The position numbers and the translations under genes were made by a program. This document shows positions 5,433 through 53,399 of a stretch of DNA of 64,000 bases, in pieces (the stretch's first letter is position 1; every line of letters begins with the position of its first letter). The stretch spans positions 14,151 through 78,150 of the IMG/VR virus record IMGVR_UViG_3300030103_005573; one strand, written 5' to 3'. This DNA comes from a virus. The notes below the pieces were generated by a model. It searched no databases. It was not told the origin of the DNA and was given only the letters and a program-made list of their open reading frames with translations.

Positions 5433-8400
5433 TTATGGAAAGTCTCGGAAAATTCTATCAAGCACATAATTTTGTGTCCAGTTTGAGAATCTTCTTAGTT
5501 CTTCCTGTTGCACTATTGGTTCTATAGGTATAAGTGTTTCTGGGTTTATTCTTTCGCTTATACCTGGTAAAAAGTTTGGATTAGGTTGAGGAGGTTGTAA
5601 TGGCGGGATTGGAGTGTCAGAGCCTGCCCCTGGAACTCCAAGCTCTATTGTTGGGCCTCCTGCTGATCCTTCGATTACATTTTGTGGAGTTGCTGTGTTT
5701 TCGCCAGGAACTTTTAATAGTGGTGGTTGATATTTTATTTTATTTCTTTCTAAACTATGACTCTCAACTATATTTCTTACGTTTTCTGCATATCTAGCAG
5801 AAAATGGCATAAGTTGATCAAGCATTTGAGTTACGGCTGAATCTAGCCATTTATAATAGTCAAGATACTTTTGTAAGTCTACTATATCGTTCTGTACCTT
5901 GCGGAAAAATATTTCTCTTAGCTTTTCCATTTGTTTATAATTTAATCTATATTTGTTTACTGGTTCGCCGATTAAGTTATTAAAATCTTTAATAGAAGCA
6001 AACAAATGAAGCATACGGCTAGAAATACTACGATACATGCTCTTTTCTATAGCATAAAAACTACTAGAAGGTTTTTTGAAAGTACCAAAAACTCTATCGT
6101 CTGCTGATAAAACTTGCACAACATCAGTGTAGGCAAGATACTCTGGTGATACTAAACTATTAGAATAAACATATTGCTTTCTTGCTGGAGATGCATATGC
6201 TGTAAAGAAATCGCCCCGTCCAGTATGTTGTCTTAAGTTAATATTACTAAGTGTATCTCCTTGATATGTAGCTTCATAACTACTATCATTTAACCCATGA
6301 GAAGAGTCTTGGACAATGAAGCGACCGCTTGCGTTAGATCCTGTAACTTTTGTAAATTCCCAATTAAGCGCTAAAGTTTGTATGTTAGGTATATAAACGC
6401 CTGCGCTAGCTGTTTGGAACAAATAAGAATTTCTAGATGGATGCAAGGTGCCGTGGGTATCCACTTCTCTTGCCTGGATATCAAGAACTTCTGGTGGTAG
6501 AAAATCTGTCCAATATCTTGTGCTTGATGCTCGGACATCAGTAGAAGTTAGTGTACTTCCGGTAAAATTTGTCTTGTGTGCACCAATATATATTCTTTTA
6601 GCTGAATTTATGATTGATGAACCAGAAGTATAACTTAAATCTGACACTACATTGAAATAATTTTGCTTCTGACCTGTATTGAAATTGACGCCATATAATC
6701 CCAGTTCATAACCAGTGGACGATACCGAAGAACTTAGAATTGAATTAGAGAAGGGATAACGTTTTGGTTTAAGAGTTAAAGAAAGGTTCCACCTCTCATT
6801 ATCGTAAACATTCCTAAAAACACTCGAAGTCAGCAACGTATTTCCCGTGCGATCTTTAACTATAAAATATGCGTCCTTAACTTTGTTCAAGGGGGATATA
6901 ATTTCTGAAAATTGTCCTGGTTTTTTTACTGCATATACTTGTAAACCATAATCGTTAGCAGCCGATTGCCAAGTCAGATCTGTTGATGTAGGGTCAGTAT
7001 CAAGAGGCGTGTGAAAACCAAATAGAGAAGAACTAACCACATTTGGCACAAGATAAGGAAGTGTGTCCTCGTTTTCTTTGCTTGGGAACACAAACTCAGA
7101 TTGCACGGAAAAAGAATACTCATCAAGTTGGTCTGATCCGCTTATGAGTCCAACAGAATTAACATTAGTAGAATCATAATATTGATATACTGTTGCCTCA
7201 CCATCTGTCTGATTCAGAAGAGATGTAAAATCGATATATTTCTTATGACTAACTGTTGTAATATAACTACTTGTTAATTCATAATCAGCGTCATCTGAAT
7301 ACGCATTAAATGCTAATACCTCTTCACCAACACCAAGACACCTAATAAAATTTCTTATTGATTTTTCATTACCTTTTGATTTCAGTATGAAATTAAGATT
7401 GTTATAAATGTTCTTATAAATAGAATTTTTGATATCTACTAGGTGCTGATCGAAATTAATCTGCTCATCTCTCTGTAAAAATTGTGCTAATAGTCCAGAG
7501 TTCTCGAATAGTTCAGGTGCTGTAACACCAAGATTATCTACTAGGCGATCATTAAACGGAAACTCGTCTATTGATTCAGTCAAGCTTCCACTAATATAGT
7601 TGTTGTACTTCAGTTCCTTAAGATAAGTAAGCTGATTATAAAGTGTATCAAAATATCCAGAGATTATCTGTGTTAGGGCAACAATCTCGTTATTACTGGC
7701 TTCTTCTGCCTCAACTACCCAAGTTGGAAGGTTATTTATAAGACGAGAGCTATTATTAAAATCATAATTTGACCCGCTCAGTTGATATTCATTTTTAGTT
7801 GAAATATAGTCCGGGTGGTTAGTTCTTATTATTGGCTCGCCACGTTCCGTGATAGATTGAATAGATAATTGATTTATGGCAGATCCCGTGTTTCTGGGGT
7901 ATGGTAGAGCCGAAGAATAACCAACATAGTTCCCATTTGATACCCTACCTGAATAATCTAGTATAATAGCATCAACTGAATTATTCCCTGTGATACCTTC
8001 ATTAAATTTAAAATAAACTCCCAAGGAAACATTAGCGTCATATTTATCGCTACCTCCCTCAACATTGGTAAACCAATTTCTGCCAATTTGTTCAGAATCC
8101 CTGGACGCTTTCCAGAATCTAAATTCATCAAATGATGCTGATAATTTACCAGAACCTTCTGCTAACCCTAATCCCCCAAAGCCTTCTGGGGATTCCCTTA
8201 ACCCTCCGAGGTTGGCTATCATAGTTCCTGTCACCTGCCCAATAGCACCAGACCCAGTAACACCTGTTTCAACACATTCACCGTTTACAAACAAATCCAT
8301 CGTAGGAGAACTTCCAGATGTGTTAAATCTAAATGAAAAATTTCTCCAGGTTGCATCGGAAATTGTTATTTGACCTGGAGTTGTTGGTATAGCAGTCTCT

Positions 8401-12814: not shown

Positions 12815-15800
12815 TTGTAATAAGTAGGTTTTCTAGTAATGTTTTCTCTTGTAAAATACGAGCAGACAACGTTGGTGCAATTTCATATATACCTGACAAG
12901 TGTGATATAAATCTTCCAGCCAATTCTAGTCCACTAAGCTCTGGAGGCAAGCCTGGTTGTCCAGGGTTCTCTTCTTCATAGAGTCTTTTTGCTTCCTCGA
13001 ATCTTTCTTTTGTGTAGTCTCCCCATAAACTAAAGTACTCAGATATTGTACTATAATAGCTTTGTGGGGTCAATGGATCAAGATCCTTGTTTAGCCAATC
13101 ATTCTCCAATATGATAACCCATAATTCGTCAGCGCTACGTTCGATTTCAGTCAGTTGTCCAGAGTTCAACCTTTGTCTTGCAGTATCTATAGTCCTATTA
13201 AAATTAAATGGCTTTAGTCCAATCGTTTGTAATGATGTTAGCGCTGCGCTTAATTGTTCATTAAGGACTGCTGCCTGTTCTTCGTTCGCAATAATAAGTT
13301 GCATCCTCAATGACTGAATTGAATTCTCAAGGAGTGCTACTCTTATAGATTCATTTTGAGTTAATTCTCGCCTTTGATTATCTGGTGCGGACCAATTTCT
13401 AAAAATTGTATCCACCTCTTCTCTAGCAAAAGCTCTTATATCCCCACGTATTCTAACACTGCGATCAAGTGGGTTACCTTCTAATATACTTAAGCTGGTT
13501 ACTCTGTCTAAATAAGACATAATCTCATTATTGGCAATTGTGATATCATCAAGATCAAATAAAGAAAATATACCATACCCCTCAGCAGTTGTATTAAAGT
13601 TAATGTATTGGTTCTCTATCGTATTGAACCTAATTTGTACTTCCCTAGTCCTAAAGTATCGAATGGGCAAGTTCGTATCCCAGGTTGATACATATGTTGG
13701 AAATTTAGTTTGTGCATTAGTGAACTGATAAACTGATTGTCCTTTTATGCTTGTTAATAATCCATCATATGAATCTGCAACAGTAGACAGATACCTAGTG
13801 AAAGTATCTTCATATCTTTCCGAGAACTTGATCCCCTTATCATGATATATCATATAGGATGCTATTTGAGGGGCAGCAGGTATAAAATAAGGACTAACAA
13901 GCATACCAAGTTCGGTTATATCTGTTTCAGTATAAAACTCCCTCACCTTCTGCTTTGTTTGCTCCGCCATATTAGCATCCACAATACCATAGTCTCGAAG
14001 ACTTGTTTGAGGATCTGTTATAGTTCTATACAAATCTAATAAAACTTCTTTGTAATTTTGCATAGTATCTTCATTAAATATTGATTTATTAATGCCAGAA
14101 AATACTTGATTTTTAGCAATGTTAGATAACATACTGATATACATTGATTCAATGATGTTTTTAAAATTTTGACTTGGAGAATTTACATCACTAATCAAAG
14201 GGTTGTTTATCATTTTTTCATCGGAAGCTATTCTAGGATAAACTTTTTGTATGACTCCTACTTGACTTTCAAATGGACCCAACATATTATCATAAGACAA
14301 TTCTTGTGTTATTTTTTGAGACAGATAGTCAGATATCAATTTTATAGTACCAACACTGCCCCAGTGAGGATATACAGTTGTCATTGGCATAATATTTAAG
14401 AAGAAATGAAACATATGATTTTGAATGGTTTCCACTGCTATACTAGCTTTGGAAATATCTTGTGCGGTTATGCACTCATCATCTAATTGCGTAAAGGGAA
14501 ATCTGGATATTGACTGAATATATCTTGACATATTCTGTGGTCCATCTTTTGCTATAACGCTATCATTTATTTGAGTGTCAATTCTTCTAGTATAATTTTG
14601 AAGAAACGCTGCTTTAGTGTTTCTACTATATAATCCAACTTGCGTTCCAGGTCCCTTACCTATGGATAATCGATTATAATAAGTCCTAAAGGCTGGGGAT
14701 CCTATTGGTGGCATCATGACCCCGTCCACATTTAAAAACTCAAAATTATTATTCCTATCTAAGCGGATATTATATTCATCTGATTCTAATCCCTTAAATA
14801 TTTGATAATTAATTTGTTCGAAGGTTCCTCTTGTGCCAGCTTTATAGATGTCATCAGAAACCTCATTACAGTTAAATTCATCTGGATTAAAGGAACACAC
14901 CCTCTGTAAAGAATCTTCATTTGGCTCAGTAAAGAAAGAAATATTTATAGATGGATTTCCAAGAGTTAAATATGACGCTCCTGTCCAACCAGTATATGGA
15001 GAACCTAATTCTACTGCTAAAAGATATTTTCGTACCTCACTACTGACCAGGGTTAAAAGGGCACGATCACCCCTGGATCGAGTCCCATCTTGACTTGTCA
15101 ATGTTGCGCCGAGATTTCTCATCCTTTCTGTTGTTAGGAATCTTTTTAATTTCCCCTCTAGAGAAGGCGGGGCAGTTTTTATGGCATAATATGAAGCGTC
15201 ATATGGTTCATATTGTTTTTGAGGTTTTTCTAAAAATTGTGGAATATCAAGACGAGGAGCATTTGGTATCCTACTAACTGTTCCTGGAGGTGGTAGGTCC
15301 CCTGGGTCGGAGTCTGCGAGAAATTCTTGATACTCATCATAGTTAGCTCGATAGTCAGACCAGATATAGTAATAAACAATCTCGTCCAATTGTTCATTGT
15401 TTCTTGCCTGATAATTACCCTCGTAACTAACCTCACCATTAGGACTAGTTCTTATTCGGAATCTTTGTCTTGTAGGACTCCAACTAGATGGTGTCAGGAA
15501 CCCAATTTCCCTATTGTAAGAATATACCTGATTAATTAAAAGCTCTCTTAAAGAAAAGAATATCTGATAAAAGAGTTCGCTTCCAACTTTTGATGAATAT
15601 AAATTATACTCACCCTTTGCCCTTATAAATCTATCTTCTGATTTATCAAACAATGACATCAAAGAATTAGTAAAAAATGCTGTTATTGCGTTACTTGCAA
15701 ACGCAATAACTTTTAAGAAATCATCATACCACTGTAAATCTGGAACTAGATTTAACATCTGTTGAATTCTAAGCTCCATTCCTTGAAATCCTCTCAAGAA

Positions 15801-42489: not shown

Positions 42490-42975
42490 ATGATAAGAGT
42501 ATTAACACGTAAAAGGGTACTCTTATTTATTCTAGGAATTGTCTCCCTTTTAGCTGCCTCTCTGATATATTATAACAGTATTAAGCCCGAACTTGTTCTA
42601 TCGGGGGATGTCACATATTATCTCCCAGGACAAAGAAGCAATTGCCAGTGGGTCATGCAGGCAGATCACAACTTATATAACACACCTGGTGAGACTACCG
42701 AGATTCGCATAGGAATTCCCTCTGCTCAAAAAATGGGGTTTATCAGTGGAAGAGTAGAGGTCGGACCTCACAATACCTTAATCTTAGCTTTTATACCACC
42801 TGGAAAATCTAAAGATAAGATTCCTGTAGTATTGACTGCTGATTACTCAGAAAAAACATTGCCTATTGATTTTGTTCGTTTCAGATGGGCACAAAGTAGT
42901 GCCATAACTATACTTTTATTTTCTAGTAAAAATAAATGTTTATCGTCAATTCCAGCTAGCGGTTTAACAAAATGA
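42490..42975 (+). CDS. Membrane-anchored hypothetical protein
   Basis: GGAG RBS, N-terminal TM helix, overlaps next gene (ATGA). Confidence 0.65.
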   Translation: MIRVLTRKRVLLFILGIVSLLAASLIYYNSIKPELVLSGDVTYYLPGQRSNCQWVMQADHNLYNTPGETTEIRIGIPSAQKMGFISGRVEVGPHNTLILAFIPPGKSKDKIPVVLTADYSEKTLPIDFVRFRWAQSSAITILLFSSKNKCLSSIPASGLTK

Positions 42976-44219
42976 GATTAATTAAAATCCTACCTGCACT
43001 ACTATTGTTTTTTGCATGTGAGGAGGATCGCCTAGTAAAATTAGAATGTGTACCTGGTGAAAAACTTGTGTGCGATGAACATGGGCAGGATTTTCCTGCG
43101 GCGGACCCTGTTGATATTGCAAAACGAGCAGGTCAATGTTCTTATGGTATAAAAACATGCACGGTAAGAGGATGGTCAGAATGCATAGGAGCACAAGGAC
43201 CTACTGATGAAATATGTGATGGAATAGATAACGACTGTGATGCCATAATTGATGAAACTTATCCAGAAGAACACCAACTTTGTGGATTTGAAGAGAATAT
43301 AGATTATGGAGTTGGTATATGTAAACCAGGAGTTATGAGTTGTTATAATGGAGTTTTATATTGTGGTGGACATGTCGGACCTACTGATGAAATTTGTGAT
43401 GGTGTTGATAATAATTGTGATGGCACTATAGATGAAGGCATTGCTAACTCCACAGCAATCGTATGTTATGAAGGTCCAGATGGAACTCTGGGTGTTGGAG
43501 AATGCAGGGCAGGAATTAGATATTGTACAGATGGATCTTTTGGTGGACCATGTGACAGTCAAATTTTGCCAGTATTAGAACGATGTGATAATTTAGATAA
43601 TGATTGTGATGGAGAAGTTGATGAGGGATTTGACACCCGTGGTGTAGATTTAGTTTTTGTTATTGATATCTCCGGTTCGTTTAGGGATGAGATAGACTCA
43701 ATGGTACAAGGTATTACTCCCCTTTTAGACGACCCGATAACGAGCACATTTCGCTTTGGACTCGTTGTCGTAGGTGCTAGGGCAGGTGACGACCTAAGAC
43801 CCGCATATCACCTCGCAAGAATGGTGTCTGATTTTGTTCCCGCTGATGAGTTTTTGGCTGTAATAGAAGCTGGAAGAATGGTTCCAAGTGCTGGACAAGA
43901 GCCAACAGTAGATACAATGTATTGGTCAATGAATGAATATCCATTTTCATGGAGGACAGGTGCACAAAAAGTTATTATAACAATGACGGACGAAGAAGCT
44001 CAAACAACATTCTCACACCCAAGGACTTGTTTTGAGGTAGCAGAGCACGCAGATAATCTTGGATTTGAATTATTTGTTTTCGCTCTCCAACAACACCACA
44101 ATACATTTATAAATTGTGTTAGGGGCAGGAGAGATAGGTTATATACTCCTACAGCAAATTCAGAAACTGTATTTCTACAGATCAGAGCTATTTTTGAGGA
44201 TCTTTGTATGGGAGGGTAA
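42972..44219 (+). CDS. Lipoprotein with Cys/Asp-rich (MopE-like) repeats and a C-terminal von Willebrand A domain
   Basis: Lipobox LLFFAC; three E(I/R)CD(G/N)xDN(D/N)CDxxxDE repeats; DLVFVIDISGS MIDAS motif, MTDEE. Confidence 0.85.
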   Translation: MRLIKILPALLLFFACEEDRLVKLECVPGEKLVCDEHGQDFPAADPVDIAKRAGQCSYGIKTCTVRGWSECIGAQGPTDEICDGIDNDCDAIIDETYPEEHQLCGFEENIDYGVGICKPGVMSCYNGVLYCGGHVGPTDEICDGVDNNCDGTIDEGIANSTAIVCYEGPDGTLGVGECRAGIRYCTDGSFGGPCDSQILPVLERCDNLDNDCDGEVDEGFDTRGVDLVFVIDISGSFRDEIDSMVQGITPLLDDPITSTFRFGLVVVGARAGDDLRPAYHLARMVSDFVPADEFLAVIEAGRMVPSAGQEPTVDTMYWSMNEYPFSWRTGAQKVIITMTDEEAQTTFSHPRTCFEVAEHADNLGFELFVFALQQHHNTFINCVRGRRDRLYTPTANSETVFLQIRAIFEDLCMGG

Positions 44220-44633: not shown

Positions 44634-45182
44634 TTAGTAATTATCTTCCACATGTTTCTTAATTTGTGCTCTTATAGCTTCTTTTTCTTCCTCTGTTTCC
44701 GCATTTGCCCAGCCCCATGCCAACGTAGCTCTCATATTGTCTGATTTATGCGATCCATCTTTAATATAGTTTTCTAACTCTCCTGAGATCTCATCTGCAT
44801 CTATATCATCTGTTTTGATTTTTAGAGTAGATGCGATAACAAACAGTGTAGCCATATCACATTCTTCATAAGCTTCAGAAGCCTGAGAGAAGTACTCTGT
44901 TAAAACTTCTGAGTCTACTTTATCTGGGTGTGTAGCTTTTGAGATTCTTCTGTATAACTTTTTCATATCTCTGGTAGGCGTTGGTTTTTTCTTTTCTGTT
45001 TCTTCCAACGATGACGGAGCAGTATTCTTTTTTGCAGACTCTATCATTCTTTTATATTCTTCTGGAAAATCTTTATAGAACTGTTCTTTAAACTTCATGA
45101 AGAGATCTGTGGTTTCCTCCAAATCCTCAGAGACATATTGTGCCTTAAATACTAACTTTTTAATGTTTGGCTTTTTTGGCAT
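44634..45182 (-). CDS. J-domain (DnaJ-like) protein
   Basis: MKKLYRRISKATHPDKV...FSQASEAYE: helix-HPD-helix of a J domain. Confidence 0.7.
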   Translation of the reverse strand: MPKKPNIKKLVFKAQYVSEDLEETTDLFMKFKEQFYKDFPEEYKRMIESAKKNTAPSSLEETEKKKPTPTRDMKKLYRRISKATHPDKVDSEVLTEYFSQASEAYEECDMATLFVIASTLKIKTDDIDADEISGELENYIKDGSHKSDNMRATLAWGWANAETEEEKEAIRAQIKKHVEDNY

Positions 45183-45198
45183 ATAATAAATATCCTTT

Positions 45199-45233
45199 AA
45201 AAAAAGAAAGGGGCAGCCGAAGCCGCCCCTTTC
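45199..45233 (-). terminator. Rho-independent terminator after the Ala-rich gene trio
   Basis: GAAAGGGGCGGC-TTCG-GCTGCCCCTTTC followed by a T-run. Confidence 0.85.
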
Positions 45234-45273: not shown

Positions 45274-46797
45274 TTAGCCAGGCTGAACTTCTAGTTGCAT
45301 GACGTTCTCAGCACCAGATGTATTGTATTCAAAGACCAAGTGGACTTTATCAACACCATCTTCAAGTTTGAGAGTACCGCCATCAGAGCCGTCACCGTCA
45401 AACTTAAACTTAGCAGCAAACGCATCAATGTTACCTTGTAGTGCATTATCAGCAGCAAGACGGTCACCTTCTTCAATCCCAATGCTAGTAGCAATACCAC
45501 TATCAGCGACTTGACGAATGTTAGTCTGATTTGCTTCAGCAGTACCACGAGCAGCAGTTTCTGCATCAATCTCAGCCTGAATACCATTGTCACCAGAGAT
45601 GCGTAGTGCTTCTTCACTGTCAACAGCAAGAGAGCGAACACCTTCTTCTGCGGTGTTTGCTGCAATTGCAGCAGCCTTAGCAGAGGACATGCCAGCTTCT
45701 TCAGTAGAAACGTCGGCAGAGCGGTTGGCTGATTCTGTTGCTATAGCAGCCATCAAAACACCATTAGCATTTAGACGAGCAACTTTTTCTGAAGACATCG
45801 CTGCTTCCATGGTAGAAATTTCAGATGAAAGAGCACCAGAAAGAACTACATCGCCCGAAAGCATAGAAGAGTTCTCAGCAGCAACAGCAGCGGCACGATC
45901 ACCAGCTTCAGAAGCTACGTTACCAGCGATGACTGCATCAGCAGCTTCATAAGCTGCCTTCTCAACAGAAAGAGCATCTTTACGATCAAGAGTTTCTTGA
46001 CCAACGAGAACACCGATAGAAGAATCAGCATCACCACGAGCAGTAGCTTCAGCAGCTACGCCTGCAATTCTTGCAGCTTCTTGTGTATCAATATCACCCT
46101 GGATTGCAGCATCACCAGCAGCACGAGCAGTAGCTTCGGCAGTGACAGCAGCAGCACGAGCTACTTCAGCGTCATCAATGTCACCAGAGATGCCGGCATC
46201 AGCAGTAAGACGTGCAGCTTTTTCAGTTGACGAAGCAGCGGCACGAGCAGTTTCTTGTGCGTCAATTTGACCACTTAGAGTAGCATCATCAGCAGCACGC
46301 TTGGATGCTTGAGCAGTTACCTCAGAAGCACGATTAGTAGCTTCATCAGCAATACGTGTCTCCATGGAAAGGTCAGCAGCAGAGCGCAAAGCAGCTTCAG
46401 CAGCTAGATCAGCGATACGTTCTGCTACCGCACTAGACAAGTCGCCAGACAAGGACGAATCCATTGCTTCACGAGCAGCTTTTTCTACGGACAATGCAGA
46501 AGACTGATCACCAGCTTCAGAGTCAATGTTACCCTGAATAACTGTATCAGCATCACCACGGGATGTAACTTCACTAGCGAGAGCAGAGTTTTCATCACCC
46601 TCTTCTGTGGCTAGATTAGCAGAAAGAACGTTACGTGCAGCCAATTCAGCAGTAAACGCATCATTCAAGGAGTGATCTCCACCTGCGGGGTTAGCAACCT
46701 GTAAGACTTCTGCTAGTTCACCAGCAGATTCAATCATCTTTTTCTGAAGGACTAATCCGCTACCGGATGAATCCTCAATATATACATTTTTTGGCAT
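45274..46797 (-). CDS. Ala-rich long coiled-coil fibre protein, paralog 3
   Basis: 507 aa; N-terminal YIxxxxxSGLVLQKKM motif; 18+11 residue ExxAR repeats; short beta C-terminus; AAGGAG RBS. Confidence 0.8.
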   Translation of the reverse strand: MPKNVYIEDSSGSGLVLQKKMIESAGELAEVLQVANPAGGDHSLNDAFTAELAARNVLSANLATEEGDENSALASEVTSRGDADTVIQGNIDSEAGDQSSALSVEKAAREAMDSSLSGDLSSAVAERIADLAAEAALRSAADLSMETRIADEATNRASEVTAQASKRAADDATLSGQIDAQETARAAASSTEKAARLTADAGISGDIDDAEVARAAAVTAEATARAAGDAAIQGDIDTQEAARIAGVAAEATARGDADSSIGVLVGQETLDRKDALSVEKAAYEAADAVIAGNVASEAGDRAAAVAAENSSMLSGDVVLSGALSSEISTMEAAMSSEKVARLNANGVLMAAIATESANRSADVSTEEAGMSSAKAAAIAANTAEEGVRSLAVDSEEALRISGDNGIQAEIDAETAARGTAEANQTNIRQVADSGIATSIGIEEGDRLAADNALQGNIDAFAAKFKFDGDGSDGGTLKLEDGVDKVHLVFEYNTSGAENVMQLEVQPG

Positions 46798-46842
46798 TTT
46801 ATTTTTATCTCCTTATAAAATGTTTTTGTTAATTGCTATCCC

Positions 46843-48372
46843 TTATGCACCCTTGTGGAGTTCTAAGAGAACAACACCGCTAACAGTCTTGTAATTCATA
46901 CGAACAACATCACTACCATCGGTGAGAGTTAGGTTAGAACCAGCACCAACTGCTGGAGCACCACTGTAGCCAAACTTGTTATCAAGTGAAGTAATTGAGT
47001 CACCCATTGCAGTATCACCTGCAACACGAGCAGCTATAGCATCATCAAGATCACTTTGTAGTGAAAGATCAGCAGATCCACGAGCAGCAGACTCAGTAGT
47101 AATGTATGCAGCCATTGCTGTGTTTTCAGCAGCAATGTTATCACTTAGAGTAACATCACCAGCAGCACGAGCAGTTTCTTCAGCAGCAACATCCGCTACA
47201 CGAGCAGCGACCATTGCAGCAACATCAGCTTCTACATCAGCGACGTCGCCTGCACGGACAGTTGCAAGACTTGCAACAGCAGCAAGAGCAGCAGCCTCTT
47301 CGGTGTCAATGTCACCAGAGATACCAGCATCATCAGCAGCAGCACCAGCTTCTTCGGTAGATACCAAAGCTTCACGATCAACTACAGCACCAGAGATACT
47401 TGCAGATAGAGCCGCATCAGCAGCTTCACGAGCAGCCTTTTCTGTACTTACAGCAGCGGAACGTGCAGCTTCTTCATCAGAGATGAGAGTAGCGACAGAA
47501 ACGTCAGCAGCAGCACGATCAGATGCGTGACCAGTTACAGCAGACGCACGATCAGACTCTTCACTATCAATACCAGCAGAAAGGTTGGCATCACCTAGTT
47601 CACGAGCAGCCTTTTCAGAAGAGATCGCACCAGAGCGAGCAGCAGCTTCGGCAGCAATATTAGCAGCCAAAGAGGCGTCGCCAGCAACACGAGCGTCTTT
47701 TTCTACAGAAAGAGCAGCAAGACGTGCAGTTTCTTCAGCATCAATTTCACCCTGAAGGGCAAGATCAGCAGCCGCACGCTCAGAAGCTTCTAGAGCATGT
47801 TCAGCTACACGAGCTACTTTCTCAGAAGAGATCTGAGAAGCCATATCGTTGTCTTCGTTTCCACGAGAAAGAGCTTCAGCAGAAACAGCAGCACTACGTG
47901 CAGCGATTTCATCATCCTTAAGAGTAGCAACAGAGTTATCTGCGTTTGACATTGCATTAGCTTCAGCAGTTACAGCGTTAAAACGAGCATCGCTTTCATC
48001 ACCAAGTAAAACAGTTTGAGCATCGTCAGCACTGTCCATAGCAGCTTTCTCAGAAGAGATTGCAGCACTTGCAGCAGCTTTCATTGTGCTCAAGTTAGCA
48101 GTAAGAGTTGCATCATCAGCAGCACGAGTTACTCTTTCTGCCGCAGCAGCAGCAGAACGCTCACCAGCTTGAGTGGAAATTGCAGAGTCAATCGCATCAC
48201 GAAGATCTTTTTCAAGTGACAATTGTGCGTTGACGTCTTTATCATCAACGGCAGGTTCCGCAGCACCTGGCTCTAAAACCTTTAATAGAGAAGCTAGTTC
48301 GGATGAGTCCTGAACCATCTTCTTTTGTAGTACTAATCCGCTATCATCAGCGCCATTAATATATGTAGGCAT
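46843..48372 (-). CDS. Ala-rich long coiled-coil fibre protein, paralog 2
   Basis: 509 aa; same architecture; AAGGAGG RBS. Confidence 0.8.
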   Translation of the reverse strand: MPTYINGADDSGLVLQKKMVQDSSELASLLKVLEPGAAEPAVDDKDVNAQLSLEKDLRDAIDSAISTQAGERSAAAAAERVTRAADDATLTANLSTMKAAASAAISSEKAAMDSADDAQTVLLGDESDARFNAVTAEANAMSNADNSVATLKDDEIAARSAAVSAEALSRGNEDNDMASQISSEKVARVAEHALEASERAAADLALQGEIDAEETARLAALSVEKDARVAGDASLAANIAAEAAARSGAISSEKAARELGDANLSAGIDSEESDRASAVTGHASDRAAADVSVATLISDEEAARSAAVSTEKAAREAADAALSASISGAVVDREALVSTEEAGAAADDAGISGDIDTEEAAALAAVASLATVRAGDVADVEADVAAMVAARVADVAAEETARAAGDVTLSDNIAAENTAMAAYITTESAARGSADLSLQSDLDDAIAARVAGDTAMGDSITSLDNKFGYSGAPAVGAGSNLTLTDGSDVVRMNYKTVSGVVLLELHKGA

Positions 48373-48434
48373 ATTATTTCCTCCTTAGAAAATAAATTAT
48401 GTTATCATAAGAACCAATAAAAAGCTATCAGTTA

Positions 48435-50930
48435 TTAGCTGATGAACATTTTTACAACGTTTGTACCAGCAACTTTAACGAACTTAGCAGTTACGGCAAC
48501 ACCGGAACCAGCATCAGTCATTACAAAGTCACCACCACCTGCACCATCACCAGAGAAGCCGAGTCTATCAGTAAGGACTTTTAGACTTGTGCTTACAGCA
48601 GCATCGCCAGTTTGACGATCAGCAATTTCACTAGTGATATTTGCGATCAATGCATCATCACCAGCTTCCTTGGAAACTTTTTCTGAAGATATTTCGCTAG
48701 AACGCAATGCAGCTTGAGTAGACATAGCAGCAGAGTGTGTAGCATCATCAGCAGCACGCTTTGTAGCCAAAGAGGATACAGCAGCAGCACGATTACTTTC
48801 TTCATCGGAAAGCAAGTTAGCGATAGAAAGGAAATCAGCTTCACGAGCAGATTCTTCGCTATCTACAGCAGTGATACGAGCGTTGATAGCAGCGTCTAAT
48901 TCGTTGGACAAAGAAACGTCCATCGCACTACGAGCAGCTACAGCTACAGAAACATCAGCAGCACGAGCAACAGCTTCATCATCAATTTCACCCTGAAGAG
49001 CAGCATCAGCAGCAGCACGAAGTCCAGCTTCAGCAGCAACAGCAGTTTCACGAGCTAAGACAGCACTTGAAAGACCGCTGGAGTTTGTTGCATCATCAGC
49101 TTCACGAGTAGCTTTTTCTGAAGATACAGCAGCAGAACGATCAGCGATAGCAACAGCTAGTTCACCTTCTAGGGCAACATCAACGGATTGCATTGCAGAC
49201 TGCTCAGCAGCAATAGCAGAAACATATGCAGCTTCTTCGGAGTCAAGAGCAACAGACTGTGTTGCATCGCCAGCGAGACGATCAGTTTGTTTGTCAGCTA
49301 CTTCTGCGGCCATAGCAGCTTCTTCAGCAGCTAGGTTTGTAGAAAGAGCAGCGTCACCAGCAACACGATCAGCGTTAATAGAAGCCAAAGAAGTATCTTC
49401 TTCGGACTCTTCTGTTGCCAAAAGTGCAGCTACAGAATTATCACCTGCTAACATAGCAGCGGATTCAGCAGCAACAGCGGCTACACGAGCATCTTCCATA
49501 TCACCGATATCGGTTGTAAGAGCTACATCACCTTCACCACGAGCAGTTGCTAAAGAAGCAACAGCAGCGTTCATAGTAACTAACTCAGCAGCGATAGCAG
49601 CACTTTGTGCAGAATCTTTGTTGCTACGAGAAAGTGTTGCTGCGGCTAGATCATCGTCTAGTTCGCCAGCATCAGTAACAAGTTGACTGCTAACAGCAGC
49701 ATCGCCAGCTTGACGCTCAGCAATTGTGAAATCCATATCAGAGATACGAGCAGAAACTTCTGCCGAAAGGGCAGTAGATAGAGAACCACGTTGAGTAGAC
49801 GCTTCAGCGAATGCCTCATTGAGGTTTTTGTCCAGACCAGATTCTGGCTCCGAAACTTTGAGTACTGCTGCTAGTTCGCCAGAACTATCAAGCATTTTCT
49901 TTTGTAAAACTAAGCCAGGCTTATTGGCATCATCAGAAATATAAGCCATGTTGGTTCCTCCATTAAGAGTTATTGTAACCGGCGCACTAGTTGTTTGCCC
50001 GAAAGCATTTTGCGCTATCAATACATATGAAACCGTTCCTGTAATTGCAACCGATTTAGAACTTAATCCCGAAACGTCTATAGTCTCGTGAGTATTTGGA
50101 TTGTATAACGATAATGTTGTACCTAAATCACTGTCCCATGAAAATGTCACAGAGTCACCGCTAGAATCAACACTTGCGACATCTGAAGAGAAAGAGTTTA
50201 TAACAGGGTTTACAACGTGATAACCGTCGGCATGAGTTTCGATAGAATCGTAAGCAATACCATAACCTTGAGACCAGATAATATCATCGTAAAAACCATT
50301 AGCAGATTTGCCATAAGCAAAATTACCACCAATGCGAATATGAGGATCAGAATTGGTAGCATTATAAATGTTACCAGCATAAGAGTCCTTTACGAAATAA
50401 CAAGGGTTTCCACTATTATCATTCAATATGTTGCCAGAGGCATCAAAAAGAGCGTAAGTGAAAACACCCGCTATACGACTGAAATAAATGCGTATCCAAG
50501 GATAACCTGTCAAGTCAATGTTAAAAGACTTACTTGTTTGCGTACCAGAACCATACCGATAGTAAGCACGTAAATCATATGATGAAGCACTATTACCAGA
50601 AGGTCCATAGTTGGCAATTTTAACAACATCAGGGCTAGAAATAAAGTGATGTCTTAACGCTGATGTCCCAAAACTGGAATCATTAGGTTTCCACCAAAAC
50701 ATTACGGTGAAATCGTCAGTTCCTATATTCTCTAGTGCATCAACTGGTCCATAGGCTGTATAATCAACAGCCCTACCTCCAGCAGTATGTCCAATACGAA
50801 AGGCAGGATTAGCACCTCCATACCAGCGACTGCTATTAGCAATAGAAGCAGCTTCACCATAAGCGGTAAGATCAACACTATTAACTCGGTCGGTATTGTT
50901 ACCATTTAACCAATGGTATAAATTAGCCAT
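48435..50930 (-). CDS. LamG-like head plus Ig-like linker fused to an Ala-rich coiled-coil fibre, paralog 1
   Basis: 831 aa; DDFTVMFWWKP...IRIGG...NGFYDDII (LamG-like); PVINSFSSD...VTFSW (Ig-like); stalk begins at MAYISDD. Confidence 0.8.
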   Translation of the reverse strand: MANLYHWLNGNNTDRVNSVDLTAYGEAASIANSSRWYGGANPAFRIGHTAGGRAVDYTAYGPVDALENIGTDDFTVMFWWKPNDSSFGTSALRHHFISSPDVVKIANYGPSGNSASSYDLRAYYRYGSGTQTSKSFNIDLTGYPWIRIYFSRIAGVFTYALFDASGNILNDNSGNPCYFVKDSYAGNIYNATNSDPHIRIGGNFAYGKSANGFYDDIIWSQGYGIAYDSIETHADGYHVVNPVINSFSSDVASVDSSGDSVTFSWDSDLGTTLSLYNPNTHETIDVSGLSSKSVAITGTVSYVLIAQNAFGQTTSAPVTITLNGGTNMAYISDDANKPGLVLQKKMLDSSGELAAVLKVSEPESGLDKNLNEAFAEASTQRGSLSTALSAEVSARISDMDFTIAERQAGDAAVSSQLVTDAGELDDDLAAATLSRSNKDSAQSAAIAAELVTMNAAVASLATARGEGDVALTTDIGDMEDARVAAVAAESAAMLAGDNSVAALLATEESEEDTSLASINADRVAGDAALSTNLAAEEAAMAAEVADKQTDRLAGDATQSVALDSEEAAYVSAIAAEQSAMQSVDVALEGELAVAIADRSAAVSSEKATREADDATNSSGLSSAVLARETAVAAEAGLRAAADAALQGEIDDEAVARAADVSVAVAARSAMDVSLSNELDAAINARITAVDSEESAREADFLSIANLLSDEESNRAAAVSSLATKRAADDATHSAAMSTQAALRSSEISSEKVSKEAGDDALIANITSEIADRQTGDAAVSTSLKVLTDRLGFSGDGAGGGDFVMTDAGSGVAVTAKFVKVAGTNVVKMFIS
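49947..49961 (-). promoter_or_regulatory. Internal in-frame translation start (RBS plus ATG) giving a 504 aa stalk-only product
   Basis: GGAGG-AACCAAC-ATG at 49961-49947, in frame, at the position equivalent to the paralogs' N-termini. Confidence 0.7.
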
Positions 50931-51110
50931 TATTATTCCTCCAAAAAAAAAGAGAGAAATATAACTTATAGAAAACTATTTGGAAAACTTATTTGTAACT
51001 TATCGTCTTACAGAAACGGTCGTTGTCTTCGGCAGTTTGTCTTACCAACGACATGCCTTAAACGTCTTATATAGATTTTTATTCACTGTTTTTTACATTT
51101 ATTTTTATAT

Positions 51111-51142: not shown

Positions 51143-51230
51143 TGGAGGAAGGAGAGGGATTCGAACCCTCGGTAGGTTGCCCTACACAGCATTTCCAATG
51201 CTGCACCATCGGCCTCTCGGTCATCCTTCC
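51143..51230 (-). tRNA. tRNA-Ser(GGA)
   Basis: GGAAGGA/TCCTTCC acceptor, CAGCA-TTGGAAA-TGCTG anticodon arm, long variable arm, encoded CCA. Confidence 0.93.
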
Positions 51231-51235
51231 ACTTT

Positions 51236-51261
51236 AAGCAGTTTAAAGACTTGCTTAGGTC
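51236..51261 (-). repeat. 26-nt direct repeat, copy 1 (GACCTAAGCAAGTCTTTAAACTGCTT)
   Basis: Identical to 51391-51416; in a tRNA spacer. Confidence 0.9.
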
Positions 51262-51283
51262 AAGCACTAGAATCGCACTTCTA

Positions 51284-51359
51284 TGGTGGAGGGTATCAGA
51301 GTCGAACTGATGACCTTCTGCGTGCAAAGCAGATGCTCTACCAACTGAGCTAACCCCCC
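51284..51359 (-). tRNA. tRNA-Ala(TGC)
   Basis: G3:U70, TCTGC-TTTGCAC-GCAGA, CCA end. Confidence 0.95.
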
Positions 51360-51390
51360 TGCTACATTAAATAGAAGTATAACGACCTTA

Positions 51391-51416
51391 AAGCAGTTTA
51401 AAGACTTGCTTAGGTC
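51391..51416 (-). repeat. 26-nt direct repeat, copy 2
   Basis: Identical to 51236-51261; starts 2 nt after the CCA of tRNA-Thr. Confidence 0.9.
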
Positions 51417-51418
51417 TA

Positions 51419-51494
51419 TGGAGCCGCTTATCCGACTTGAACGGATGACCGTCGGTTTACAAAACCGAAGCTCTACCAACTGAGCTAAAGCGGC
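51419..51494 (-). tRNA. tRNA-Thr(TGT)
   Basis: GCCGCTT/AAGCGGC, TCGGT-TTTGTAA-ACCGA, CCA end. Confidence 0.95.
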
Positions 51495-51497
51495 TAA

Positions 51498-51574
51498 TGG
51501 TACTCCCTGGAGGATTCGAACCTCCGACCTACGGCTTAGAAGGCCGTTGCTCTATCCGGCTGAGCTAAGGAAGC
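51498..51574 (-). tRNA. tRNA-Arg(TCT)
   Basis: ACGGC-CTTCTAA-GCCGT, GGTTCGAATCC T-arm, CCA end. Confidence 0.95.
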
Positions 51575-51577
51575 TTA

Positions 51578-51654
51578 TGGTAGACCCGCAGGGACTCGAA
51601 CCCCGATAGAATCGCTTATGAGGCGACGTCATTAACCAATTATGATACAGGTCC
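51578..51654 (-). tRNA. tRNA with CAT anticodon, probably tRNA-Ile2 (lysidine, reads AUA)
   Basis: GTCGC-CTCATAA-GCGAT; C4-G69/C5-G68 pairs; no initiator features; tilS ~1 kb away. Confidence 0.8.
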
Positions 51655-52476: not shown

Positions 52477-52644
52477 TTATTTTGGAGCATAAATAGCCTG
52501 GTCAAGACCTTCTAGGTATCCACACGTTAAGAATAACCCTGTCATTAAGACAACTGCCACCCAAATCCTTATACACCCAGGGCAGTTATCACATCCAGTC
52601 TTATCACACTGATCGTTAAAAAAGAAGCTACGCCAATTCTTCAT
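52477..52644 (-). CDS. Small Cys-rich membrane protein
   Basis: Probable start MKNWRSFF (GGAG RBS); CDKTGCDNCPGC then a TM helix. Confidence 0.55.
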   Translation of the reverse strand: MKNWRSFFFNDQCDKTGCDNCPGCIRIWVAVVLMTGLFLTCGYLEGLDQAIYAPK

Positions 52645-53233
52645 GGTTTTTCTCCACAAGCTTTTTGATTGTTTTTTCAATGCCCGGATTCACAAGCCGA
52701 GCGTTAGGAAGAATATCGTGTCTAATAATACTTCTCATAAACTGTTTATCTTCATTTGCCGGATCTACCAAGAAGGGAACTTCCTTCCTATTACACCAGT
52801 CTTCTAACGAGCGTTTAGGAGTTAGGATAAATGGTCTAATCACGTTTTGGTTACGGTACGGGATGATTCTCCCGTTCCCGTGGATCGAAGAGAATAAAAA
52901 CCACTCTATCACATCGTCTAAGTTATGACCCGTAATGACTGGCTCGTTGAAGCTGTGAAGAAATTTATAACGCTCATTCCTCCAATGTTCCTCAAGCGAC
53001 TCACCTGGCGGGCAACTATTATAATTAACACCAACCACAAGATCAATATCACGACTGTCACAAAAATCTTTTACAAAACTTTTACACTTAGTTCCGAAAG
53101 AAGTGCCGTGATCAAAATATGCTGCTGTTACATTGTGGTTATTTGAGAGAAAGTCTAGAATAGCCATGGAATCTGGGCCGCCTGAAACGGCGACTGTAAG
53201 ATCCCTTGGCAACTTTCCCAAAACCTTTAACAT
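52628..53233 (-). CDS. tilS: tRNA(Ile)-lysidine synthase (short, PP-loop domain only)
   Basis: AVSGGPDS, DHG, EEHWRNERY, TGHNLDDVIE, IRPF, DPAN, RSIIRH; start MLKVLGK with AAGGAG RBS (the track ORF extends into tRNA-Val). Confidence 0.88.
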   Translation of the reverse strand: MLKVLGKLPRDLTVAVSGGPDSMAILDFLSNNHNVTAAYFDHGTSFGTKCKSFVKDFCDSRDIDLVVGVNYNSCPPGESLEEHWRNERYKFLHSFNEPVITGHNLDDVIEWFLFSSIHGNGRIIPYRNQNVIRPFILTPKRSLEDWCNRKEVPFLVDPANEDKQFMRSIIRHDILPNARLVNPGIEKTIKKLVEKNHEELA

Positions 53234-53244
53234 AACAACTCCTT

Positions 53245-53319
53245 TGGTGCGCTCGGTAGGGTTTGAACCTACGACCCCTGCCGTGTAAAGGCAACGCTCT
53301 ACCACTGAGCTACAAGCGC
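53245..53319 (-). tRNA. tRNA-Val(TAC)
   Basis: TTGCC-TTTACAC-GGCAG, CCA end. Confidence 0.93.
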
Positions 53320-53324
53320 ATATT

Positions 53325-53399
53325 TGGTAGGGACGGTGGGGATCGAACCCACGACCAGCGGATTAAAAGTCCGATGCTCTACCTCTGAGCTACGTCCCT
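53325..53399 (-). tRNA. tRNA-Lys(TTT)
   Basis: AGGGACG/CGTCCCT, CGGA-CTTTTAA-TCCG, CCA end. Confidence 0.93.

Follow-up and report, generated by a model that had tools for sequence, protein, structure and literature searches.

Among the closest described counterparts to the locus reported here is T4 fibritin (gp wac), the collar and whisker fibre, which is a parallel trimeric alpha-helical coiled-coil rod of about 500 residues with a short N-terminal attachment region, a tiny C-terminal beta domain (the foldon) that nucleates and registers the trimer, and no receptor-binding domain. Fibritin is a homotrimer of one gene, as most described phage fibres appear to be, and is built from heptad segments broken by loops. 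Other relevant systems are the phiKZ peripheral tail fibres, in which tandem paralogous fibre genes (gp131 paralogues) co-assemble through a parallel alpha-helical bundle (PMC13250141), the laminin and fibrinogen heterotrimeric coiled coils and designed ABC heterotrimers with buried polar layers, in which chain selection and register are set by charged or polar core and flanking residues and by the C-terminal end, and SF-assemblin/beta-giardin (PF06705), which has a 29-residue repeat with a period of 29/8 (PMC2119799).

A 64,000-nucleotide stretch (hereafter the window; positions 14,151 to 78,150 of IMG/VR record IMGVR_UViG_3300030103_005573) from an uncultured marine T4-like phage was analysed and found to carry three neighbouring paralogous genes, A, B and C, with an uninterrupted 29-residue repeat containing Arg/Glu/Asp core layers. 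No sequence match to fibritin was found, there being no Pfam hit to the foldon (Fibritin_C, PF07921) in A, B or C and no PF07921 match in the window's record or in a 98%-complete relative, although the control genomes gave no match either. In contrast to the proposed trimer, the phiKZ fibre is a hetero-hexamer with a short six-helix bundle and beta-propeller heads rather than a 60-nm three-stranded repeat rod, and there is no sequence relation. The laminin, fibrinogen and designed heterotrimers are eukaryotic or synthetic, heptad-based and left-handed, and are likewise not related by sequence, while the SF-assemblins are two-stranded eukaryotic cytoskeletal filaments to which only sub-threshold Pfam matches were obtained (15.9 bits for C and, in a further search, 21.8 bits, against a cut-off of 30.6 bits; no hit for A or B), so that the resemblance is one of periodicity only.

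Organisation of the three-gene operon

All three genes lie on the minus strand. Gene A (48435-50930) encodes 831 amino acids, gene B (46843-48372) 509 amino acids and gene C (45274-46797) 507 amino acids. The initial annotation had described the first chain as a protein of 504 amino acids; this was found to be the part of A (48435-49949) that starts at an internal ATG (49949-49947), which is preceded by a nested Shine-Dalgarno sequence (GGAGGA, 49956-49961) at a distance of 6 nt, while the long form has its own GGAGGA (50937-50942) before the ATG at 50930-50928. The GGAGGA-N6-ATG arrangement is conserved in two related contigs, L094 and L101, although the heads are only 31% identical. Full-length homologues of 821-835 aa were found, whereas in the related contigs L009, L010, L097 and L098 A is a free-standing gene of 502-503 aa, collinear with the short form. 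Orthologues of B and C are of 499-509 aa and 497-504 aa, respectively.

Other features noted in the initial annotation were also confirmed. The ribosome binding sites are strong (GGAGGA, AAGGAGG and AAGGAGA), the spacers of 45-62 nt contain no hairpin terminator that was obvious by eye, and a single intrinsic terminator, a GC hairpin plus T run (45199-45233), closes the operon; the same hairpin follows C in L010, L097 and L101. Codon usage is biased (GCT 72%, CGT 88% and GGT 73%, against 43, 14 and 38% in 13 other genes) and is typical of highly expressed genes. Metatranscriptome contigs of 150-240 nt, 90-100% alike, were found to lie on A, B and C, but such libraries can hold DNA, and this does not show transcription.

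The N-terminal motif Y-I..GLVLQKKM..S..ELA..L.V is present in all three chains (49845-49949 in A, 48268-48372 in B and 46687-46797 in C). Fourier analysis gave a sharp peak at 3.625 residues in each chain, with all other peaks being harmonics of 1/29 and a power of 2.3-4.9 compared to a maximum of 0.8-1.2 in 500 shuffles. When anchored at the cap, each chain shows 14 uninterrupted 29-residue repeats without an indel (A, 48558-49775, residues 59-464 of the short form; B, 46969-48186, residues 63-468; C, 45403-46620, residues 60-465), the last unit of which shows an 18+11 substructure. No 87-nt DNA repeat was detected with Tandem Repeats Finder, so the repeats are old. The stalks end in chain-specific caps that are conserved across lineages (A, 40 aa, ..VTAKFVKV..VVKMFIS, 48438-48557; B, 41 aa, ..LTLTDGSDVVRMNYKTVSGVVLLEL.., 46846-46968; C, 42 aa, ..LKLEDGVDKVHLVFEYNT..VMQLEV.., 45277-45402), the beta character of which is inferred from the sequence pattern and from contacts in the co-fold described below.

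Residues 1-240 of A (50211-50930) form a variable all-beta head which appears to be LamG/ConA-like by homology. The head itself has no Pfam hit, but it is homologous to the head of L101 (E 7e-21), which weakly matches Pfam Laminin_G_3 (19 bits, cut-off 27.6), while the protein P0001 passes the threshold (49.2 bits, E 8e-13) with a different head sequence. Residues 241-327 (49950-50210) form an Ig/FN3-like linker domain that is 56% identical to P0001. A single-sequence AF2 model of the head was poor (pLDDT 37); with five sequences only the Ig-like part was confident (pLDDT 80-90, seven strands), and fold matches for both parts were weak.

No Pfam, PHROG or PDB sequence match supports any specific structural role for A, B or C. 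There was no hit to YadA_stalk (PF05662), which only a distant relative (P0011) nearly reaches (27.8 against 28.4 bits), and ESM Atlas gave only leads below 0.9 (alanine zipper, Mtd_N, head fibre and PTR). No DNA or protein match to the trio was found in the GenBank phage collection, where the nearest isolates, by the gp6-like baseplate protein, are only about 30% identical (Microcystis phage Mel-JY01 and Flavobacterium phage immuto). Scans of viral contigs with the head, P0042, P0005 and the J-domain protein added nothing new.

Conservation of the trio and complementarity of core layers

The initial annotation had inferred a 1:1:1 heterotrimer from equal length and register alone, an argument that is weak by itself; however, the comparison with relatives came out in its favour. 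Seven related marine phage contigs keep the A-B-C order and nearly identical stalk lengths, and the order A-B-C followed by a J-domain gene is kept in all related contigs (L009/L010, L094, L095, L097, L098, L099, L101 and L103), which represent at least three deep lineages. The distance from N-motif to cap is 452 residues in all seven A genes with an identifiable N-motif, 450-452 in C and 447-456 in B, the B linker varying by 9 residues between lineages. A 29-residue shift of A against B and C in the MAFFT alignment is not meaningful, as paralogue identity is 25-35% at every multiple of 29, the level of the repeat consensus alone.

A profile of nine stalks was used to search for further proteins with this repeat, and 3399 were found (959 at E<=1e-10). 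These constitute an unnamed phage fibre-stalk family with the same Ala-rich repeat consensus (L3 E6 R10 V14 E17 R21 D25 L28), often spaced 29 residues, and a periodicity of ~3.6 residues, and some members have an N-terminal I-K-K-K-F motif resembling LVLQKKM. In contrast to the trio they range from 179 to 5165 aa, were single-copy in the loci checked and often carry large C-terminal tail-fibre-type domains. With a scoring matrix blind to these columns, Glu17 was found to be 97% conserved in 868 units of 141 other family members, compared to 67% in the trio, suggesting that the state in the trio is derived.

In the trio the core stripe of each repeat is L/I3, E6, R10, V14, E17, R21, D25, L/I28, such that hydrophobic layers alternate with buried Arg layers, each preceded one turn earlier by a Glu layer. 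With the chains aligned from the cap, exactly one non-Glu chain was found in 23, 24, 24, 24, 20 and 23 of 26 Glu layers in six genomes, while the mean over the 168 shifted registers was about 12 and the maximum 17-20 (binomial tails from 4e-4 to 5e-7). The in-register alignment was the best of 289, half-repeat staggers included, in three genomes, and in the fourth it was level with one shorter alignment. Arg layers showed no double substitutions in five of the six genomes, while the divergent lineage had 4 double and 3 triple. The odd chain moves between genes across lineages while the rule is kept (for example, row 6 column 6, AEE to EQE; row 12 column 17, LEE, EAE and EEQ; row 3 column 6, EME to AEE). 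No such pattern was observed in surface columns, complementarity at columns 7, 13, 18 and 24 was not significant, and per-repeat charge variance in the core sector was lower than in shifted registers only as a trend (P 0.02-0.15). It should be noted that the lineages are few (about three deep ones, several contigs being close relatives), that the six genomes are therefore not independent, and that in the most divergent lineage (L101) the rule is weaker and needs a correction for 2-residue phase slips in A and C. In-register complementarity with switches of the odd chain between genes cannot come from shared ancestry.

These data bear on the possibility that the genes encode three separate homotrimeric fibres (AAA, BBB and CCC) which share one docking site, with equal length reflecting a common ruler requirement on the virion. 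Such a reading fits the common N-motif (a shared socket), the chain-specific caps, each of which could act as its own foldon, and the conservation of Glu17 in other family members, by which all-Glu layers can evidently exist. It does not explain, however, why the non-Glu residues of three different genes partition the layers almost perfectly (0-2 all-Glu layers against 6.7-7.7 expected, and 1-2 doubles against about 6), why this holds only in the cap-anchored register or why the odd chain switches between genes. An A homotrimer would have 12-14 of 26 Glu layers with no Glu next to the Arg layers. This explanation was considered unlikely.

Predicted assembly and location of the fibre

The C-terminal thirds of the chains (A320-504, B324-509 and C321-507) were modelled together. 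The co-fold scored 0.62, compared to 0.13 for the best of 3 controls, a mark reached by 58 of 80 solved complexes and 2 of 110 mismatched pairs; the runs agreed in at least 97% of contacts and the partner's pLDDT was at least 85. Contacts fell on columns 3, 6/7, 10, 14, 17/18, 21, 25 and 28, in the cap-anchored register, and between caps. Without homotrimer models for comparison this result must be viewed with caution, as paralogues of a homotrimeric coiled coil might co-fold in silico anyway.

Taken together, the results suggest that A, B and C are the three chains of one parallel, in-register 1:1:1 heterotrimeric alpha-helical coiled coil, most likely a virion fibre (a probability of roughly 0.7). 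Each chain would contribute the short N-terminal motif, probably a common docking or nucleation element, and a Pro/Gly linker followed by the 14 repeats, with 8 helical turns per repeat giving an almost straight rod of roughly 60 nm; both this straightness and the length, given as about 65 nm in the initial annotation, remain geometric inferences. We read the layer rule as a barcode, in that only A+B+C in the correct register gives uniform E,E,X layers, while any homotrimer, wrong mixture or slip by a repeat would give X,X,X, E,X,X or E,E,E layers next to the Arg layers, although this energetic logic is inferred. In some lineages, including that of the window, chain A also carries the LamG-like plus Ig-like head, with a nested start that could also yield the headless chain, and such a fibre would carry at most one lectin-like head. 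To our knowledge the regular rule of two Glu plus one other residue has not been described, and no matching report was found in the papers searched. It is perhaps slightly more likely than not that this is the first natural obligate ABC heterotrimeric coiled-coil fibre of a virus, with chain composition and axial register written in its buried Glu/Arg layers, and that fibres with exactly one lectin-like head or with none can be made through the nested start.

A different stoichiometry was also considered, such as a six-helix A2B2C2 bundle like the phiKZ fibre base (PMC13250141) or lateral bundling of A:B:C trimers through the Ala/Ser-rich surface, as about 210 degrees of each helix surface is Ala/Ser/Thr/Gly. 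This appears improbable, given that the conserved sector is only about 125 degrees wide, as in a trimer, that the two-plus-one rule counts to three, that the confident three-chain co-fold uses exactly that sector, and that surface columns evolve freely.

That the fibre is part of the virion is inferred from distant relatives of the stalk, which carry C-terminal domains that PHROGs calls tail fibre or head decoration, and from the LamG-like plus Ig-like head with swapped variants, which is typical of phage adhesins. The operon does, however, lie outside the baseplate module and structural gene block, between tRNA genes and a J-domain gene, and no exact late-promoter TATAAATA was observed within 210 nt upstream of A in the window. 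These observations, together with the sub-threshold SF-assemblin matches, would fit a heteromeric filament that is not part of the virion, for example an intracellular scaffold, cytoskeletal element or host-takeover structure, but this is doubtful, as the defined length, cap and N-terminal docking motif suit a discrete fibre rather than a polymer. A fibritin-like whisker or an adhesive fibre is our best guess for the function.

Long repetitive coiled coils face a register problem, because any slip by one repeat looks almost as good as the correct alignment. A natural three-gene solution with a simple, readable layer rule would give protein designers a ready-made specificity and register code for long, straight heterotrimeric rods. 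It would also show that fibre valency can be set genetically, with one head per trimer, and would add a new appendage type to abundant but uncultured marine myophages.

Genomic context and the three-gene locus

The 78-kb IMG/VR virus record containing the locus is estimated to be 41% complete and carries a gp6-like baseplate wedge gene, a PrkA/SpoVR/DUF444 module and seven tRNA genes just upstream of the three genes. The nearest cultured phages are only about 30% identical in the baseplate protein, while marine and seawater metagenomes from 11 studies were found to hold at least a quarter of the sampled words of gene B. The record therefore represents an uncultured marine T4-like myophage lineage with an unknown host.

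Three minus-strand ORFs fill positions 45274-50930 of the window and encode proteins of 831 (A), 509 (B) and 507 (C) amino acids. Gene A has an internal ATG at residue 328, preceded by GGAGGA-N6, and from this point it is collinear with B and C; all three share the motif Y-I..GLVLQKKM..ELA..L.V..P. Fourier analysis gave one dominant peak at 3.625 residues (29/8), with every other peak a harmonic of 1/29, and the power was 3-6 times the best of 500 shuffles. When written in rows of 29 from the conserved aromatic residue that opens the C-terminal cap, each chain shows 14 uninterrupted repeats with the consensus L/I3, E6, R10, V/L/I14, E17, R21, G/A24, D25, L/I28, in which D25 is present in 112 of 117 units. 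On a 29/8 helical wheel these residues fill one sector of about 125 degrees, while the rest of the surface is Ala/Ser/Thr/Gly/Asp and varies freely. The repeats are no longer detectable as repeats at the DNA level. The strong RBSs, the single terminator and the distinct codon usage (here GCT 72%, CGT 88%, GGT 73%) were as described in the initial annotation. Short contigs from four marine metatranscriptome libraries (150-240 nt, 90-100% identical) map inside A, B and C (46584-49980), although this is too little to show transcription.

The seven tRNA genes (51143-51654 and 53245-53399, minus strand; Ser-GGA, Ala-TGC, Thr-TGT, Arg-TCT, Met-CAT, Val-TAC and Lys-TTT) lie directly upstream of the very Ala/Ser-rich fibre operon; the fibre genes use CGT for 88% of Arg codons, which the phage tRNA-Arg(TCT) does not read. 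A short PP-loop ATPase (52628-53305, minus strand; Pfam ATP_bind_3, E 2e-28, TilS-like) lies beside the tRNA cluster and is conserved in the related contigs L010, L097 and L098. Next to the fibre/J-domain block, on the opposite strand, is a gene (42972-44219, plus strand) for a 415-amino-acid protein with three MopE-type Cys-rich CDGxDNDCDG motifs and a vWA domain.

Conservation of the trio in related contigs

Pattern scans recovered the same locus in two IMG/VR contigs, one of which is a 178.6-kb genome that is 98% complete, and in nine marine metagenome contigs. Every contig long enough shows A, B and C in that order, with short spacers, the same terminator after C and the same J-domain gene following. 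The J-domain protein is 182-190 amino acids in length (window 44634-45182, minus strand; L010 13731-14285; L097 10736-11290; L101, from the most divergent lineage, 6531-7103; Pfam DnaJ E 6e-06, HPD motif in ..THPDKV..), follows the operon in every lineage and is itself followed by a conserved protein of ~130-150 amino acids. It could recruit host DnaK for fibre folding, but this is only an idea.

Orthologues are 40-50% identical, while paralogues are 25-35% identical at any multiple of 29, which is only the repeat consensus; each paralogue keeps its own cap sequence across lineages. The distance from the N-terminal motif to the cap is 452 in all seven A genes with an identifiable N-motif, 450-452 in C, and 447, 448 or 456 in B, where the difference lies in the Pro/Gly linker. 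In addition, a profile of the stalks was used to search for other proteins with this repeat, and 3399 were identified, ranging from 179 to 5165 amino acids in length. This very large and apparently unnamed family of phage fibre proteins shares the Ala-rich Glu/Arg/Asp repeat unit, with unit spacings of 29, 40 and 47 residues; many members start with an I-K-K-K-F motif, and no Pfam model covers the stalk. Among the 80 viral loci examined, none carried a tandem set of such paralogues. Copy number and length therefore do not vary freely in the trio; free variation among relatives had been named in the initial annotation as an outcome that would count against its interpretation, a 1:1:1 heterotrimer.

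Complementary core layers

The three chains were aligned from the cap and the core columns were compared layer by layer in six genomes. Of the 26 Glu layers (columns 6 and 17, rows 2-14), exactly one non-Glu chain was observed in 23, 24, 24, 24, 20 and 23, compared to a mean of about 12 and a maximum of 17-20 over 168 shifts of B and C by whole repeats (binomial tail under independence, 4e-4 to 5e-7). All-Glu layers numbered 0-2, where 4.5-7.7 were expected under independence, and layers with two or more non-Glu chains numbered 1-2 in five genomes and 6 in the divergent lineage, compared to about 6-10 in the shifted registers. Arg layers with two or more chains substituted numbered none in four genomes, one triple in two and 7 in the divergent lineage, compared to 1.7-9.1 in the shifted registers. 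Among 289 alignments which also allowed half-repeat staggers, the in-register alignment was the best in three genomes and in the fourth was level with one shorter alignment. Surface Ala and Ser columns, treated in the same way, showed no complementarity.

The odd chain is often the same in all lineages (for example row 14 EQE and TEE, row 10 ERR and row 8 YRR), while in at least ten layers it moves from one gene to another with the rule maintained (for example row 6 column 6, AEE to EQE; row 12 column 17, LEE, EAE and EEQ; row 3 column 6, EME to AEE). In the most divergent lineage (L101 775-6433 and L103 561-3639), chain A slips by -2 residues N-terminal of repeat 9 and chain C by +2 N-terminal of repeat 3, while B does not; around repeat 9 all three chains have atypical sequence, which may mark a hinge or a local discontinuity in the rod. 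Shared ancestry would produce positive and not negative correlation between paralogues, and only selection on the joint composition of a layer explains the pattern. This inter-protein compensation in one specific register is the main reason for accepting the heterotrimer, although the number of independent lineages is small.

To determine whether this is a derived state, repeat units were picked in 141 other family members with a scoring matrix blind to columns 6 and 17. In the resulting 868 units Glu17 is 97%, compared to 67% in the trio; in the trio, therefore, one Glu per layer has been given up in a chain-specific way. We infer negative design: a homotrimer of A would have 12-14 of its 26 Glu layers with no Glu next to its Arg layers, while homotrimers of B or C, wrong mixtures and slipped registers would give irregular layers. 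This energetic reading is an inference only.

A co-fold model of the C-terminal thirds of the three chains gave a score of 0.62 (best of 3 controls, 0.13), a mark which was reached by 58 of 80 solved complexes and 2 of 110 mismatched pairs. The runs agreed in at least 97% of contacts and the pLDDT of the partner was at least 85. The modelled contacts are parallel, in the cap-anchored register and on exactly the conserved columns, and the caps touch one another. The model supports binding but does not show it; it was obtained without homotrimers for comparison, and cousins of a true partner often pass this test.

The head of chain A and the inferred role of the fibre

In the window, in the related loci L093, L094 and L101, and in the relatives P0001 and P0005, gene A begins with about 330 extra residues, which are absent in L009, L010, L097 and L098. 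The last 87 of these residues are confidently predicted to fold as an Ig/FN3-like domain and are 56% identical in P0001. The first 240 residues are homologous to the L101 head (E 7e-21) and appear to be LamG-like by the Pfam hits of relatives, while in P0001 they are replaced by a different LamG sequence. The LamG-like head has been exchanged between close relatives (P0001 residues 1-228 versus window 50247-50930) while the Ig-like linker and the stalk are kept; this looks like a modular head swap at the tip of chain A, and such a swapped distal module is typical of phage adhesins. The GGAGGA-N6-ATG at the junction is conserved where the flanking protein is only 31% identical, which suggests that both a headed and a headless chain A are made. 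In an ABC trimer there would be at most one head per fibre.

The function of the fibre is the least secure part of this account. The architecture is closest to that of T4 fibritin, with which it shares a chain of about 500 residues, a short N-terminal conserved element, a long (here inferred) trimeric rod, a tiny (here inferred) beta cap and, in many lineages, no receptor-binding domain; however, there is no sequence relation and no Fibritin_C match. Distant relatives of the stalk carry domains that PHROGs labels tail fibre or head decoration, and a virion appendage, either a whisker-like or an adhesive fibre, is therefore favoured over an intracellular filament. The 29/8 period implies little supercoiling, and 14 x 29 residues at about 0.15 nm per residue implies a length of roughly 60 nm; both figures are geometric inferences.

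No report of a heterotrimeric coiled-coil phage fibre was found in the literature searches. The nearest precedent for co-assembly of paralogues is the hetero-hexameric phiKZ fibre base (PMC13250141). Laminin, fibrinogen and designed ABC trimers are heterotrimeric coiled coils but are functional analogues only, and SF-assemblin, which shares the 29-residue period (PMC2119799), is below the Pfam threshold, two-stranded and eukaryotic. The interpretation of the three genes in the initial annotation as the chains of a 1:1:1 heterotrimer is supported, on stronger grounds than the equal length and register on which it was based, although this support is computational and no experiment has yet been performed. 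Trimeric coiled-coil phage fibres are already known; what distinguishes the fibre proposed here is that it is probably heterotrimeric and appears to carry a readable layer code.
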